Assembly: GCA_963734175.1 (NCBI GenBank)
Contig: CAVTGC010000006.1
Span: 423,682-487,681, forward strand
Direction: 5' to 3'
Source: an uncultured Candidatus Rokubacteria bacterium
Lineage (GTDB): Bacteria; Methylomirabilota; Methylomirabilia; Rokubacteriales; CSP1-6
DNA length: 64,000 nt
The position numbers and the translations under genes are program-made. Below are positions 41,313 to 52,142 of this stretch, one piece after another. The first letter of the stretch is position 1, and each line of letters begins with the position of its first letter. The notes beneath the pieces were generated by a model that had not been told where the DNA came from, did not search any database, and was given only the letters and a program-made list of their open reading frames with translations.

Positions 41313-42285
41313 TACTCGATCACCTGATCCGCCCGCAGCCAGCAGCGACGGCGGGATCGTGAGGCCGAGGGCCTTGGCGGTCTTGAGGTTGATGACCAGC
41401 TCGAATTTCGTCGGCTGCTCGACTGGCAGATCGGCCGGCTTCGCGCCCTTCAGGATCTTCGTCCACGTAGGTGGCGGCGCGTCGGAGCAGGTCGGCGTTG
41501 CTCGGCGCATACGCCATGAGGCCTCCCGCCTCCACATGTTCCAGCCGTCCGTAGATCGCCGGCAGCCGGCTCTTCGTTGCGAGGTTGGCGATCTGTGTTC
41601 GATGATTCCAGAATATGGCGTCCGACAACACGAGGAGCGCGTCGGCGCGCTCCCTGGTCATCGCCGCAAAGGCGCTGTCGAACTGTTCCGAACCCTGCGC
41701 CTCCAGGCGCTGAAGCTGGACCCCCAGCACCCGGGCCGCACCTTCCACCTCGCGCAACTGAGGTGCGGAGACGTTATTGGCGGGATTCGAGAGGACGGCC
41801 ACTCGGGACACCTTGGGCACAGCCTCCCTCAGCAGCTCCAGCAATTTGGGGCCCAGCTCGACGGCGATGGAACTCAGCCCCGTGACGTTGTCGCTTGGTC
41901 GCGCGAGGCTGCCGACGTGCCACGCCCCGAGCACTGTGACAATGGGGATCGTCCGGGTCGCATTCTTGGCCGCGAAGGCTGCTGGGGGACTCGCGGCAAC
42001 GATCACGTCAACCTTCAGACGCACGAGCTCGATGGCGAAGTCGGGCAACTCCGCCCTTTCCGCCCAACGGTATTCGATCACGATGTTCCGACCTTCTGCG
42101 TACCCGAGATTTCGCAGCTCTTGCACGAAAACCCCCAAGAGACGGGAAACCTCAGGGTCTGTGGGCTGCTGGGACGAAAGAAACCCGATCTGGTAGACCT
42201 TTCCTGACTGCTGCGCGTTGGCGGCCAGCGGCGCGGCGAGGCCCCCGGCCAGCGAGGTCAGCAGGAAGCGGCGGCGGTCCATCAT
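41312..42285 (-). CDS. ABC-type substrate-binding protein (PF04392-like); apparent frameshifts
   Basis: [59 protein letters not shown]. Confidence 0.88.
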
Positions 42286-42779
42286 TTCGGGCCCTCATCC
42301 ACGAGCTGCAGGGCCTCCCGCAAAAGCGCTGCGAGACGGGCGTCGCGGTCTTGCCGGCTTTGCTCCTGGCTCGCAGGATCGGTTCCCGGCACCTGCTGGC
42401 ACCACTTGCAGCGTCCAGAATTGCGATCCGCGAGCCGCCATCGGCCGCCACACACCGGACAGGGCGGGCCCTGGTTTCCATATGGCCCGCGACCATTCAG
42501 GACCGGCTTCAGTCGCTGGATGAGAGTTACTTCGGATGCCACTGCGTCGGCCGCGGCCCAGATCGTGAGCGTGTCGCCGGGCTGGAACTCGCGGAGCTTC
42601 TCATGCCCCTTCGCCAGAGGCCGTTCCACACCGTTGCCGCTGCTCCCGACATAGAGCACCGCGGTGCCGCGCGACCAGACGTAGACGAGCGGGCGCCGTA
42701 ACTGGGCCAGCCGTTCGAAAGTCAGGGTCATCATCGGCTCCCCGAGCGCGACGTTCACCGCAGCCAGCGGATCAGCCAC
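42282..42779 (-). CDS. GIY-YIG-like nuclease with zinc ribbon
   Basis: LVY..VLYVG..R..H..E..LI..KPVLN; CPVC..CKWC. Confidence 0.6.
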   Translation of the reverse strand: MADPLAAVNVALGEPMMTLTFERLAQLRRPLVYVWSRGTAVLYVGSSGNGVERPLAKGHEKLREFQPGDTLTIWAAADAVASEVTLIQRLKPVLNGRGPYGNQGPPCPVCGGRWRLADRNSGRCKWCQQVPGTDPASQEQSRQDRDARLAALLREALQLVDEGPK

Positions 42780-43008
42780 GGCGTTTGCGCCGATCCGACG
42801 GCGACAGCATCGGCAGCGCCTGCTCGATCAGCGCTGCCAGGGCGACGAGCTGGCCTTGGAGAATCACCATGCTGGCCGTCCTATGGGCTCGCCACCGCCT
42901 GGTGCGGCACCGGGGCGAGCACACGGACTTTCCGCCCTCCAGAGGTCTCCCGCAACCAGGGCAGGACGATTGTACGGCGTCGCTCATACGTATGCGCTGG
43001 TCGGGCAC
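42772..43008 (-). CDS. Small Zn-binding protein
   Basis: CPGC...CSPRCR. Confidence 0.6.
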   Translation of the reverse strand: MPDQRIRMSDAVQSSCPGCGRPLEGGKSVCSPRCRTRRWRAHRTASMVILQGQLVALAALIEQALPMLSPSDRRKRRG

Positions 43009-43195
43009 ATAGGCGATAGTCGGGGCGATTTCATGAGCGGTCAGGAGCCCTCACGGAAGGCGTAGCGGGGGTATTGAGGGCGAGGATTGTCGTCGAACAC
43101 GCGGACACCGTCAGCGCGCCCGCAGGAGCCAGGATGATCCCTCCCCCCTCCCCTCGATCGACCAGCCATCGCCTGCCTGAGTTGAGTGAAAGGCG

Positions 43196-43921
43196 TCACA
43201 AGAGCAGCAACTCCAGCAGCGCCTCGTCGTCCTCGCGCTGGATCTCACCGACACGGTCGCGGTAGCGCACACTGCCGGACAAGTAGTTTTTGGCTCGGAC
43301 GATCCGACCTGTGTAGGTGTACAGCTTCGGGAGCTCCCGAGGGAGCTCGACGCGCGTCCAGGCGCGCGGGCGCGGCACGGGCCGCATCGGGATCGGGCCG
43401 AGATCGACCACCGACACGCTCGCCGCGACGAACGAATAGGTCGACGCGAGCGCCGTGACCGCGTCGATCTGGCCGACGTAGGCGTAGACCGGGACCGGGG
43501 TACGCTCCTCGGTCTGGCGGAACGTCGGCCGGAGCCGCGAGCGGCCAGCCCGCAACGGGCCGGGGATGCCGACCTCGCCCGCCGAGATGTTGGCGAGGGG
43601 GCGGACGCCCGCCCCCGCGAGCGACGAGGAGTAGAACGGCCGCCACAGGTTTCCTGGGCCACCCTGCTCCGGTTGCGCGACGAGTGCTTCCCACGGGCTC
43701 GCGGCGGCGGCCGACGCCAGCGTCGTCGCTTCCCAGCTGACCGCCAGCGACGCGGCGACCGAGACGACACGCGCGGCGCCCATCGCTATCGCGCTCGGCC
43801 GGAAGCGCGTTATGCCAGGCAGTGCGGGCCCCGGGCGTCCAAGCTGGCCTCGCCCGCCACGCCCGCGCGCGCCGCCACCCGTGGGCGATGCGGGGAAGAG
43901 GCCGGGGTAGAAGTCGCTCAC
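43196..43921 (-). CDS. Hypothetical phage-like protein
   Basis: GTGA-coupled; acidic-hydrophobic C-terminus EDDEALLELLLL. Confidence 0.55.
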   Translation of the reverse strand: MSDFYPGLFPASPTGGGARGRGGRGQLGRPGPALPGITRFRPSAIAMGAARVVSVAASLAVSWEATTLASAAAASPWEALVAQPEQGGPGNLWRPFYSSSLAGAGVRPLANISAGEVGIPGPLRAGRSRLRPTFRQTEERTPVPVYAYVGQIDAVTALASTYSFVAASVSVVDLGPIPMRPVPRPRAWTRVELPRELPKLYTYTGRIVRAKNYLSGSVRYRDRVGEIQREDDEALLELLLL

Positions 43922-44133
43922 TGCTGGAACCGTGTCCCCATCGGCGCGCGCATGCGGGCCCCTGCCGGCTCGGTGAGCGTCAGCACGATTTCGCCGTGGC
44001 CGCCGGCGAGGGCGGCGGTCGCTTCAGTCGTGGTTGTGCCGGCGCTGTGGGGAGCGGTCTCATGTCCGCCCGGGGCCAGCGTCAGCGGGTGGATCATCGT
44101 GCGCCCCCGGGGCCCGCGCGCGAATCGGGTCAT
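43918..44133 (-). CDS. Small hypothetical protein
   Basis: Overlap-coupled at both ends. Confidence 0.45.
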   Translation of the reverse strand: MTRFARGPRGRTMIHPLTLAPGGHETAPHSAGTTTTEATAALAGGHGEIVLTLTEPAGARMRAPMGTRFQQ

Positions 44134-50778: not shown

Positions 50779-50865
50779 CTTCCCCTCCCAGGGAGAAGCG
50801 GGCAGGGGCGCTGGGACGCCCCCATCAGCGCCGGCGGCCACCGGCACCTAGCCCGCGTGCTGAGC

Positions 50866-51096
50866 CTACATTGAGTTCAGGTCCGTCGATTCCAGGATCT
50901 CGCCGGTCTGCACGATCTGATAGCGGCCGCCGCCGAGCCGGTTGACGGAGCGGCCGTCCGCTGTACGAATGCTCGGCATGCCCTCGACGCTCGATCGTCC
51001 CCTCAAGGTCGAGGTGTCGATGTCTCGGACCCAGACGTTCAGCAGTTCGGTGGTCCCGTCACGCCGGGCAGCGGTGAAGCGTGCCTTTAAGCGCAT
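50866..51096 (-). CDS. Small hypothetical protein
   Basis: 76-aa ORF with GGGGA RBS; T.DGR.VNR..G.YQIV.TG. Confidence 0.65.
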   Translation of the reverse strand: MRLKARFTAARRDGTTELLNVWVRDIDTSTLRGRSSVEGMPSIRTADGRSVNRLGGGRYQIVQTGEILESTDLNSM

Positions 51097-51303
51097 GGCA
51101 TCCCCCAGGTCTGAGGTTGAAGGAACCGGGCCCGATGCTCTGGGCCCGGTGGACCGATTACTTGCCGCCTTTACCGGGCTTGGGCACTCGCTCCACCACC
51201 GTGGTGTTACGCGGTCACCCCGCGCAGGTTCCCGAGCGCCACGCTCGGGGCTGTCCCGGCCGGCAACGCTGCTCTAGTCAGCGCGTTGTCGGCCGGTCTG
51301 TTT

Positions 51304-51807
51304 TCACGCGGCTTCCTTCCAGCGGTTATGCTCCAAGCGGAACAGCGGGAGCTGCAACTGCCGCTTCTTCTTCGCAAGCCGCTTGGCTGCCTGGTTCAGC
51401 AAGACCTCACGGACCTCGCCATCCTTGGCCGCCACGACGATCGCCCGCGCGAGCTGATCCATCGATGAACCCATCGCGGTCTTGTCGTTCTCGACCCGCG
51501 ACAGGTGCGCGGGATCAACGCGCAGGAGCGCCGCGAACTTCTGGCCCGAGATCCCGGCGTGCTTTCGGAGAAAGCGCAGCTCGGCACCGATGAGCGGCTC
51601 CGGCTTCTCGATGAAAGCCTCCGCGATCACGCGATGCAACTCGCCGACGCGGGGGATCTGCGGAACGCTCGGATGCCCGCTCGGGCATTCGAACACCACG
51701 ATCCCCACCAGGCCGACGTGCGGCAGCCCGGCCAAGTCGTACCTATACGGAGCCGCCAGCGACGGCCGACGCTCGCTCATGGGTGCGCTGCAGATCGCGC
51801 AAGTCAT
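51304..51807 (-). CDS. MqsA/YgiT-like Zn-ribbon plus HTH antitoxin
   Basis: CAIC..CPSGH; ELRFLRKHAGIS..FAALL..LSRVEND. Confidence 0.85.
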   Translation of the reverse strand: MTCAICSAPMSERRPSLAAPYRYDLAGLPHVGLVGIVVFECPSGHPSVPQIPRVGELHRVIAEAFIEKPEPLIGAELRFLRKHAGISGQKFAALLRVDPAHLSRVENDKTAMGSSMDQLARAIVVAAKDGEVREVLLNQAAKRLAKKKRQLQLPLFRLEHNRWKEAA

Positions 51808-51839
51808 AGATCATCCCCCCCTCGCTCACTCGCTCAGCG

Positions 51840-52142
51840 TCAGTAGTCAAGCACGCTGACGACGAAAACGTGTCCGGCCAGCGCCACGACGCAGGACGCG
51901 TTGACGTTGGCCACCGTGCTGCCCTGAATCCGATACCGCCACTGCCCATCGCGGAAGTCGTGGCTGATGATGCTGCCGCGCAAGATGATGTGCTGCAGGT
52001 CGAGCACGTCCATCTTCCGCTTCTCCATGGCGAGCTGGGCGTGCTGGTGTATCTCGAACACTCCCTCGTCCCACAACCGCTTGATCCGACGGTGCACCCT
52101 CGCGTAGTCACCAGGGTTATCCAGCGGCACGACGTTGCTCAT
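51840..52142 (-). CDS. DUF4258-like (RelE-type) toxin
   Basis: HA..MEKR.MD..D..IL.G..WRYRIQG; lies upstream of the antitoxin. Confidence 0.75.
   Translation of the reverse strand: MSNVVPLDNPGDYARVHRRIKRLWDEGVFEIHQHAQLAMEKRKMDVLDLQHIILRGSIISHDFRDGQWRYRIQGSTVANVNASCVVALAGHVFVVSVLDY

Follow-up and report, generated by a model that had tools for sequence, protein, structure and literature searches.

The DNA examined here, a window of 64,000 nucleotides (nt) from contig CAVTGC010000006.1 of an uncultured Candidatus Rokubacteria bacterium (assembly GCA_963734175.1; G+C content of about 70%), holds next to a tRNA-Glu gene a run of minus-strand genes (42282-52343) in which excisionase-type regulators and a replication module are followed by a full-length large terminase subunit (TerL), a protein with the predicted fold of a prohead protease and a series of small genes. 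No portal, HK97-fold capsid or tail gene was detected with Pfam, PHROGs or NCBIfam, either in this run or in the rest of the 28.2-kb island to which it belongs. All coordinates are positions in this window. An earlier note on the same DNA had placed the genes it listed in the run on the minus strand throughout, in agreement with the open reading frame (ORF) calls and with the Pfam and PHROGs families found here.

Terminase, protease and adjoining genes

Both an ATPase and a nuclease domain are present in TerL (45267-46868, minus strand). The N-terminal packaging ATPase domain is recognized by phrog_9, which covers residues 15-474 with an E-value of 3.7e-42, and the C-terminal RNase-H-like nuclease domain by PF20441 (residues 349-459; 29.4 bits, cut-off 24). 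PF03354 stays under its cut-off (19.3 against 23.7 bits). A profile of the TerL clade matches one solved TerL in the PDB, 6z6d_A (‘Terminase large subunit’), at 9.6e-10 over positions 12-332. Among the four closest sequences, 130 columns are invariant, including the KKSGKT and DELW motifs, which we take to be the nucleotide-binding and acidic Walker motifs, respectively. The full-length TerL with its motifs, as described in the earlier note, is borne out by these matches.

Directly before TerL lies a small gene whose frame, picked by third-position GC, is that of ORF 46960-47664 and not that of the ATG-initiated ORF 46865-47263. The gene probably extends over 46960-47388 (minus strand), for a protein of about 142 amino acids that matched no terminase or other family in Pfam or PHROGs and has no relative in the PDB. 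An ORF of 112-219 amino acids also stands directly before TerL in relatives. The small-terminase candidate of the earlier note is therefore retained as a small pre-TerL ORF in a corrected frame, and its label is positional. On the other side, TerL and the protease gene (hereafter J) are just 193 bases apart, which leaves no room for a portal gene. This gap is occupied by a 52-amino acid ORF (45070-45228, minus strand) whose stop overlaps the ATG of J, and a small ORF is likewise found between TerL and protease in relatives. From 45228 to 43041 the genes are chained by five successive 4-base start/stop overlaps (45070-45228/J, J/K, K/L, L/M and M/N), and the last two genes of the run, O and P, overlap by 8 bases. 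The claim that the overlaps exclude an intervening portal gene stands at these junctions.

J (44612-45073, minus strand) encodes a 153-amino acid protein predicted to have a prohead-protease (assemblin, S78/S21-like) fold, a membership given at the level of the fold. Its AlphaFold2 model, obtained from an alignment with seven homologs, has a predicted local distance difference test score (pLDDT) of 84 and a predicted template modeling score (pTM) of 0.82. In BFVD, the model gave 173 matches at E<=1e-3, with prohead and capsid maturation proteases on top (top template modeling scores of 0.6-0.74). VIA-align superposed it on the protease of varicella-zoster virus (Z 10.2, 117 aligned residues, root mean square deviation 2.9) and on T4 gp21 (Z 10.1, 125 aligned residues, root mean square deviation 2.9). 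Foldseek matches in the PDB, to herpesvirus assemblins and T4 gp21, reached E-values of 6e-3 to 1e-2 and none stronger. The protease-like gene of the earlier note is thus supported by the model, BFVD and VIA-align. The seven homologs come from metagenomes (93-156 amino acids, 63-91% identity), and His49 and Ser104, presumably the catalytic residues, are conserved in all seven sequences covering each column, at a spacing of 55 compared with 52 in S78 relatives. J has no Pfam (including Peptidase_S78), PHROG or NCBIfam match, sequence searches of the PDB with J and with its profile returned nothing useful, and it was found neither in the viral contigs searched nor in the 250 further genomes of the phylum.

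The next gene, K (44130-44615, minus strand), encodes a 161-amino acid helical, coiled-coil-like protein, here taken as a scaffold candidate. Eight homologs were found in metagenomes (105-162 amino acids, 49-79% identity), and one of them, P0025, lies together with the J homolog P0004 (82% identity) on one metagenome contig of 33,902 bases. Glu, Arg, Ala, Leu, Gln and Asp make up 68% of its residues. The coiled-coil protein announced in the earlier note is confirmed as a helical protein with homologs, but its matches to coiled-coil families are weak and its heptad periodicity is modest, being reached by 31 of 500 shuffled sequences.

TerL relatives and their gene neighborhoods

Matches to TerL were found in a Nitrospira metagenome-assembled genome (MAG; locus L001, 59% identity), in an Acidobacteriota MAG (L002/L003, 48%) and in an IMG/VR contig (L004, 54%). 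A profile of four sequences confirmed at least 151 relatives among the 597 pattern matches listed in metagenomes, and 80 of these were kept. In a 36-row tree, the window TerL belongs to a 12-row clade with a support of 100/100. This TerL is absent from all 13 genomes of the same genus, a tally that includes one unpublished genome (G036).

ORFs were called in 37 loci and clustered, and 233 neighboring proteins were compared with PHROGs and part of them with Pfam. No capsid-shell match was obtained among the 233 proteins with PHROGs, and the only portal match was a weak one in the marine subclade (L061:7004-8818, E 2.1e-4). In the closest relatives with usable flanks (L001, L011, L013, L002 and others), neither a portal nor a capsid gene follows TerL; the earlier note had held that such genes in close relatives would mean a simple deletion at the window locus.

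The most informative relatives are L011 and L013, loci of 11-14 kb whose TerL proteins are 58-59% identical to that of the window. In both, replication genes are followed by a small ORF, TerL, a further small ORF, an S78 protease (212-233 amino acids), a helical protein (181-185 amino acids), small ORFs and a serine recombinase, and the only ORFs of more than 300 amino acids are those for primase/helicase, TerL, recombinase and endonuclease. The L011 protease passes the Pfam threshold for Peptidase_S78 (38.6 bits). Families named ‘major head protein’ were hit by L011:12005-12643 and L013:7654-8355, with matches to phrog_617, phrog_80 and phrog_4523 that cover only the protease part. A third locus, L012, ends inside the same protease gene.

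Genes for replication and recombination recur near TerL. Upstream of it, L001, L004, L011, L013, L042, L055 and L077 have a prim-pol, primase, helicase or DnaD/DnaC gene, tyrosine integrases are present in L001, L015, L055 and L077, and large serine recombinases in L001, L002, L011 and L013, the recombinase of L002 following TerL after two small ORFs. The TerL gene of L034 is fragmented. L080 has, in addition to a ligase near TerL, a 418-amino acid protein with a protease-like N-terminus, for which a sequence search of the PDB returned nothing useful.

As a separate observation, the genes L004:9861-13474 and L055:13343-16108, located after TerL with no head genes between, match tape-measure and tail-assembly families. 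Judged from these family matches, such a layout would be a terminase-plus-tail arrangement, the mirror image of a capsid-forming phage-inducible chromosomal island (cf-PICI).

Selection on TerL and distance from known phages

The ratio of nonsynonymous to synonymous substitution rates (dN/dS) was computed for 54 TerL pairs with at least 60% identity, of which 11 were saturated. All 43 remaining estimates were 0.32 or lower, which is under the value of 1 that the earlier note had proposed as a check on this clade. Pairs with dS below 1 (n=15) gave values of 0.05-0.31, and the eight such pairs from the window clade, which represent one subclade and are not independent, gave 0.22-0.31. TerL of the window clade is under purifying selection.

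Members of this clade occur commonly in soil metagenomes and are very far removed from the phages deposited so far. Only one of 50,697 deposited phage records matches TerL, that of Pontimonas phage phiPsal1 (24% identity), and one of 72,556 plasmids does so partially. The phage carries, in this order, a small terminase subunit (TerS), TerL, a 42-amino acid ORF, a portal, a protease and an HK97 capsid gene. No counterpart of the phiPsal1 portal was found in the window or in the other loci searched; as a control, the search recovered the portal that directly follows the distant TerL of viral contig L089. Searches for a helper prophage in the genome that holds the window, with PF05065 and PF04860, returned nothing, a result that carries no weight because the same search with PF20441 missed the window TerL, itself a match of 29.4 bits in hmmscan; blanks for weakly matching families are thus unreliable.

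The recurrence of TerL without portal or capsid, its purifying selection, its linkage to replication and recombination genes and the gene order of L011 and L013 together argue for a type of element and not for a one-off deletion.

Further genes of the run

Third-position GC confirms the frames of J, K, L and M. L (43918-44133, minus strand; third-position GC 0.85-0.87) is a 71-amino acid ORF with no assigned function and 4-base overlaps on both sides. M (43196-43921, minus strand) encodes a 241-amino acid modular repeat protein that ends in a conserved acidic-hydrophobic helix (EDDEALLELLLL). A word-based homolog search returned only M itself, whereas a full HMMER search found nine relatives besides it at E<=0.001. 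The six that were fetched measure 119-455 amino acids, vary in repeat number and share the layout of an N-terminal motif, variable internal repeats and the C-terminal acidic-hydrophobic helix. M has no Pfam or PHROG match, and the ESM Atlas returned nothing for it. Its AlphaFold2 model (7-row alignment, pLDDT 36) predicts only the helix at 224-240 and is unusable for or against a capsid fold. From its sequence, M appears to be a variable-length repeat protein, unlike a capsid protein, with no sign of being one. The earlier note had regarded the ORFs within 43196-45073 as possible capsid-fold proteins: J is a predicted protease and no ORF was shown to be a capsid protein, but for M this line of evidence fails with the model. 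In their own right, the members of the M family (P0010-P0016) are characterized by a repeated G-x-I-G-x-P-G-P...R-L-R-P-T-F-R motif in variable copy number and by a conserved C-terminal EDD-ALLELLLL helix, and they belong to no Pfam family.

These proteins bear on one alternative, namely that the locus is a complete virus that cannot be recognized as such, in which the portal and capsid roles would be played by highly divergent or unusual proteins: M, those of unannotated island ORFs or those encoded by small ORFs in the relatives. Since TerL is far from every deposited phage, its partners might be just as divergent, the model of M was unusable, and several island ORFs of 300-380 amino acids, such as 32165-33301, 35855-36844 and 30859-31770, have no annotation. 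Nevertheless, those ORFs lie where the island differs in composition, tail genes were not found in the searches described above, and the length variation of M (119-455 amino acids) is unlike that of capsid proteins. Moreover, L011 and L013 contain no unassigned ORF of more than 252 amino acids between the replication genes and the recombinase, which is too small for a portal. Taken together, such a virus is a very improbable explanation.

Downstream of M, N (43041-43199, minus strand) is a 52-amino acid ORF that is conserved as the C-terminal part of P0012, a relative of M that continues into the N homolog. J, K, M and N are conserved at full length in other metagenomes, J and K at 49-91% identity. 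O (42772-43008, minus strand) encodes a 78-amino acid zinc-ribbon protein, DUF2116-like (PF09889, 24.1 bits, under the cut-off of 26.8). P, the last gene (42282-42779, minus strand), encodes a 165-amino acid protein with a C-terminal zinc ribbon, no family match and nothing useful from a sequence search of the PDB. It is similar to L004:16437-16694 (39% identity over 87 amino acids), a gene located about 7 kb after the L004 TerL. A GIY-YIG-like reading of P, made by eye, was dropped, as it received no support from Pfam.

At the tRNA-proximal end, the run begins with a gene for a toxin-like DUF4258 protein (51840-52217, minus strand; PF14076, 28.5 bits; strong third-position GC signal), preceded by two promoter-like sites at 52237-52189. 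It is followed by a gene for an MqsA-family antitoxin-like protein with a zinc ribbon and a helix-turn-helix (HTH) domain (51304-51807, minus strand; HTH_31, 30.7 bits), which matches TIGR03830 under the cut-off (E 1.5e-10, 41 against 61.8 bits). These two genes complete the run up to the tRNA, so that the end coordinate of the earlier note, 52142, had to be abandoned, falling as it does inside the DUF4258 gene. Next come a gene for a 76-amino acid protein with a coding signal and no assigned function (50866-51096, minus strand; weak phrog_36903 match, E 0.0012) and ORF 50269-50847 (192 amino acids), whose third-position GC signal is ambiguous.

The combination of an AlpA-type regulator with a primase/replicase module that is typical of phage-inducible chromosomal islands (PICIs) is present, in the form of HTH_17, Prim-Pol and AAA_25 genes. 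The HTH_17 (AlpA/excisionase-type) regulator (49998-50201, minus strand; PF12728, 32.6 bits, E 9.5e-8; phrog_66) is followed by a second excisionase-like gene (49700-50001, minus strand), whose HTH was read by eye and whose third-position GC is 0.82-0.88 over 49700-50000. The frame of the latter starts at 50001 and runs for 452 codons without a stop, open to 48643 (ORF 48643-50001); a frameshift or an assembly error is possible at the end of the gene. The Prim-Pol domain protein (49149-49757, minus strand; PF09250, 60.4 bits; phrog_1156, 6.7e-16) is 36% identical to the prim-pol of L001. A zinc-finger and AAA_25 (RepA-like) helicase (47582-49312, minus strand; PF13481, 41.6 bits) completes the module; with a coding signal over 47850-49100, its real start is probably internal, near 49168.

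The toxin-antitoxin-like pair in the run, at the island edge, suggests another role for these genes. The terminase, the protease and the helical protein might act as decoys in a phage-interference module, occupying or damaging the procapsids and the packaging machinery of invading phages and so shielding the host population, in an island that does not move. In the accessible part of one study, known satellites are described as blocking helper packaging at the terminase subunits (PMC11417361), and in several relatives (L024, L033) ordinary cellular genes follow directly upon TerL. On the other hand, PADLOC recognized no defense system among the 34 island proteins, its only families being HTH regulators, and the replication module together with the recombinases of relatives points to a self-mobilizing element. 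Interference and transfer can also coexist. An immobile interference module is accordingly held to be improbable.

The tRNA-Glu island and its signs of decay

The run is the tRNA-proximal part, of about 10 kb, of a composite 28.2-kb island, and not the self-contained 9.9-kb unit proposed earlier. The tRNA-Glu(CTC) gene (52344-52419, minus strand; ARAGORN; Rfam 61.9 bits) and a tRNA-Gln gene both lie within 52344-52506 on the minus strand. The 3' 37 nt of tRNA-Glu (52344-52380) are repeated perfectly and in direct orientation at 24095-24131, the far end of the island, and the two copies enclose 28,212 bases. A 24-mer from this repeat has two matches in the window and none in 100 shuffles. No third copy of the attachment site splitting the island was found with three or fewer mismatches. 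Two stretches with a weak resemblance to the tRNA, at 42063-42095 and 33505-33521, reach a score of 29, compared with at most 24 for the background in 35 kb outside the island, and may hint at a tandem array; the first of them falls within an ABC_sub_bind domain. The distal 18 kb of the island has a GC content of 0.58-0.66, compared with 0.69-0.73 at 43-50 kb, the drop spanning 24-43 kb.

In this distal part, the sole integrase gene of the island, for a tyrosine integrase (33900-35518, minus strand), is broken: it contains a stop in frame, changes frame twice and is read in three frames, with matches to phrog_1 (2.3e-25) and PF00589 on its N-terminal ORF. Neither Pfam nor PHROGs revealed an integrase within 42282-52343, so that a PICI-type integrase beside the repeats is lacking, and a serine recombinase like those of relatives was sought in the window copy and not found. 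Insertion sequence (IS) remnants at 27374-28526 (minus strand) consist of split rve integrase-core ORFs and an HTH ORF (rve_3, 104 bits; rve/HTH_21; phrog_10408/151). Similarity to an ATP-dependent DNA ligase (PF01068; phrog_114) is divided between two overlapping ORFs at 39395-40045, in what looks like a broken ligase gene. Adjoining the run, two tandem ABC_sub_bind gene copies (40020-42285, minus strand; PF04392, 87.7 and 105 bits; repeats D1, D2 and D4) form a duplication of lower GC that repeats about every 975 bases, the copies being 78-87% identical. They would be cargo or part of an older island, and their overlapping long ORFs suggest frame damage. An XRE-type regulator and a choice-of-anchor-K/PEP-CTERM-type surface protein of 556 amino acids (25377-27047, plus strand) are also encoded in this low-GC part.

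Three further observations concern the surroundings of the island ends. Just within the distal end, an inverted 19-base near-copy (18/19) of the tRNA T-arm region lies at 24217-24235; it resembles the T-stem-loop of a plus-strand tRNA, and ARAGORN calls no tRNA there. Just outside the distal repeat is a gene for cytochrome c552, an NrfA-type nitrite reductase (22445-23809, plus strand; PF02335, 455 bits). On the far side of both tRNA genes lies an ORF of 1351 amino acids (52834-56889, minus strand) with a third-position GC of 0.94.

Given this setting, the run might be a decayed remnant, that is, the non-functional cargo left by a prophage or capsid-forming island that was inserted at tRNA-Glu and from which deletions removed the portal, capsid and integrase genes. 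Such a history would agree with the broken integrase, the IS fragments, the split ligase ORFs and the duplicated ABC_sub_bind genes, as well as with a run that lacks a recombinase, contains one HTH gene without a stop and the ambiguous ORF 50269-50847, and encodes a TerL whose C-terminal tail of 60 residues is not common to relatives. In addition, the one published element with only TerS and TerL was judged a likely relic by its authors, according to the available text (PMC6563490). However, TerL has lost none of the conserved columns, full-length counterparts of J, K, M and N exist elsewhere, the translationally coupled overlaps are intact, and the capsid-less order is seen again in L011 and L013. 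A clade-wide TerL without portal under purifying selection is not expected from independent deletions. A decayed remnant is thus considered unlikely, even though it deserves more credit than the alternatives above.

Interpretation and significance

The explanation put forward, tentatively, as the best of those considered is that the run 42282-52343 belongs to an undescribed family of PICI-like integrative elements that carry their own terminase. With the same reserve, this family can be defined by AlpA/excisionase-type HTH regulators, a Prim-Pol/RepA-like helicase module, a pre-TerL protein and TerL, and by the lack of portal, shell and tail genes. A branch to which this element, L011 and L013 belong would additionally encode a prohead protease together with a helical protein that resembles a scaffold. 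A more doubtful proposal, though still a possible one, is that the family represents widespread soil satellites which, having a terminase and no capsid, portal or tail, hijack the empty procapsids of a helper at the motor-portal step. In such a cycle, a helper phage would trigger excision and replication, a small protein of the element would mark its DNA, and the element TerL would dock on procapsids made by the helper and fill them with element DNA. J, K and M might enter the helper procapsids, either resizing them for a genome of 10-14 kb or spoiling the maturation of the helper. The probability left by these readings falls to something else.

Several points weigh against a PICI-like element of this kind. 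We infer the satellite lifestyle and all of its working steps, and it is demanding for a TerL to have to fit a foreign portal. A serine recombinase is missing from the window copy, and the tyrosine integrase of its island is broken; since a large serine recombinase stands at the end of relatives, the present copy, lacking an intact recombinase of its own, may no longer move. The IS and ligase fragments nearby, together with the second HTH gene without a visible stop, indicate that local decay is real. The pre-TerL protein is a small-terminase candidate by its position, and the corresponding proteins of relatives fall into several unrelated clusters, only one of which shows an HTH (MerR/HTH_23-type). 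Attempts to link J by sequence to the S78 proteases of L011, L013 and L012 gave only an E-value of 0.34 in hhalign, and K did not match the helical protein of L011 and L013 (E 0.1), so that the pair may have entered these elements in two separate events or may have diverged too far to be recognized. Members of the clade also differ among themselves: L004 and L055 have tape-measure-like proteins after TerL, and the marine subclade L060-L066, with large unannotated genes, may consist of true phages. Finally, the absence of portal and capsid genes is a result of sequence profiles, which very divergent proteins could escape, and many of the loci are short.

The satellite families covered in the available text of the sources either borrow the TerL of the helper, as PICIs and PLEs (elements that resemble phage-inducible chromosomal islands) do, or carry TerL with a full capsid set, as cf-PICIs do (PMC10085698; PMC11417361). 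If the proposal is correct, a motor and a maturation protease without a shell would constitute a third satellite strategy, a foreign TerL would be able to dock on a helper portal, and the take-over would occur at the motor-portal step, whereas known satellites use the small-terminase or the capsid-size step. The soil TerL clade, almost absent from phage collections, would then mark out a class of mobile elements that is otherwise hidden. Because TerL commonly serves as a hallmark of tailed phages, TerL-based counts of soil viruses may include non-viral elements. Should the locus be a relic, its recurrence under purifying selection would still have to be explained.

Comparison with known systems

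Like a classical PICI, the element measures about 10-15 kb, has regulator, primase/replicase and packaging genes in that order, and lacks capsid-shell genes. Unlike a classical PICI, which depends on the TerL of its helper, it has a full TerL and no intact integrase. The presence of terL has been used as the marker that divides cf-PICIs from PICIs, and an HNH nuclease together with a serine protease is occasionally found in PICIs as a ‘head decoration module’, according to the accessible part of the source (PMC10085698). In a similarly limited excerpt, PLE is described as having no TerL of its own (PMC11417361).

As for cf-PICIs, the available text of two reports lists HNH, TerS, TerL, portal, protease, capsid and connector genes, and places their TerL clade well apart from phage TerLs (10.1101/2022.09.08.507074; PMC10085698). 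With elements of this class, e.g., EcCIEDL933, the run shares an integrative island, AlpA-type regulation, its own replication genes, TerL and a head maturation protease, whereas the small terminase of cf-PICIs has here only a positional candidate. In contrast to cf-PICIs, which build their own capsids, no major capsid or portal gene was found here or in close relatives, and no head-tail adaptor/connector or HNH gene was found in the run with Pfam and PHROGs. The conclusion of the earlier note that TerL and protease without portal and capsid fit neither class agrees with PICIs and cf-PICIs as described in those parts of the reports (10.1101/2022.09.08.507074; PMC10085698).

The order of the packaging genes resembles that of the HK97-type head and packaging module of temperate tailed phages, such as phiPsal1, in which an ORF in the TerS position, TerL, a small ORF and a prohead protease are likewise found as coupled genes on one strand. 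In the phage, however, a portal gene of 1.4 kb stands between TerL and the protease gene, and an HK97 capsid gene of 1.1 kb follows the latter; in the window these slots are taken by 193 bases and by unrelated small ORFs.

Some satellites encode proteins that redirect capsid size, such as Sid and Psu of P4 and CpmB of Staphylococcus aureus pathogenicity islands. K and the helical protein L011:12649-13206 may be functional analogs of these, an analogy in role; no relationship of sequence or fold to Sid, Psu or CpmB was shown for either protein, and the ESM-Atlas feature score of 0.89 between the L011 protein and a Psu cluster is below the reliability line of the tool.

Elements without complete head modules are known from other settings. 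Marine elements that are encapsidated in virions and have no capsid genes have been described, some with small terminases, as far as the available part of that literature goes. In the literature searched, which lay outside subscription journals and supplements, no satellite that has TerL and lacks capsid genes was described apart from one case, which is the nearest precedent: NitKor-E1, a cryptic integrated element of the thaumarchaeon Ca. Nitrosopumilus koreensis. TerS and TerL are its sole tailed-virus genes, and in the portion of the text available its authors call it enigmatic and likely a relic (PMC6563490). The element described here resembles NitKor-E1 in being integrated and in having a terminase without capsid genes, NitKor-E1 also carrying a toxin-antitoxin pair and an integrase. 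In contrast to NitKor-E1, a single archaeal case with no protease, the layout found in the window recurs in a bacterial clade whose TerL is under purifying selection.

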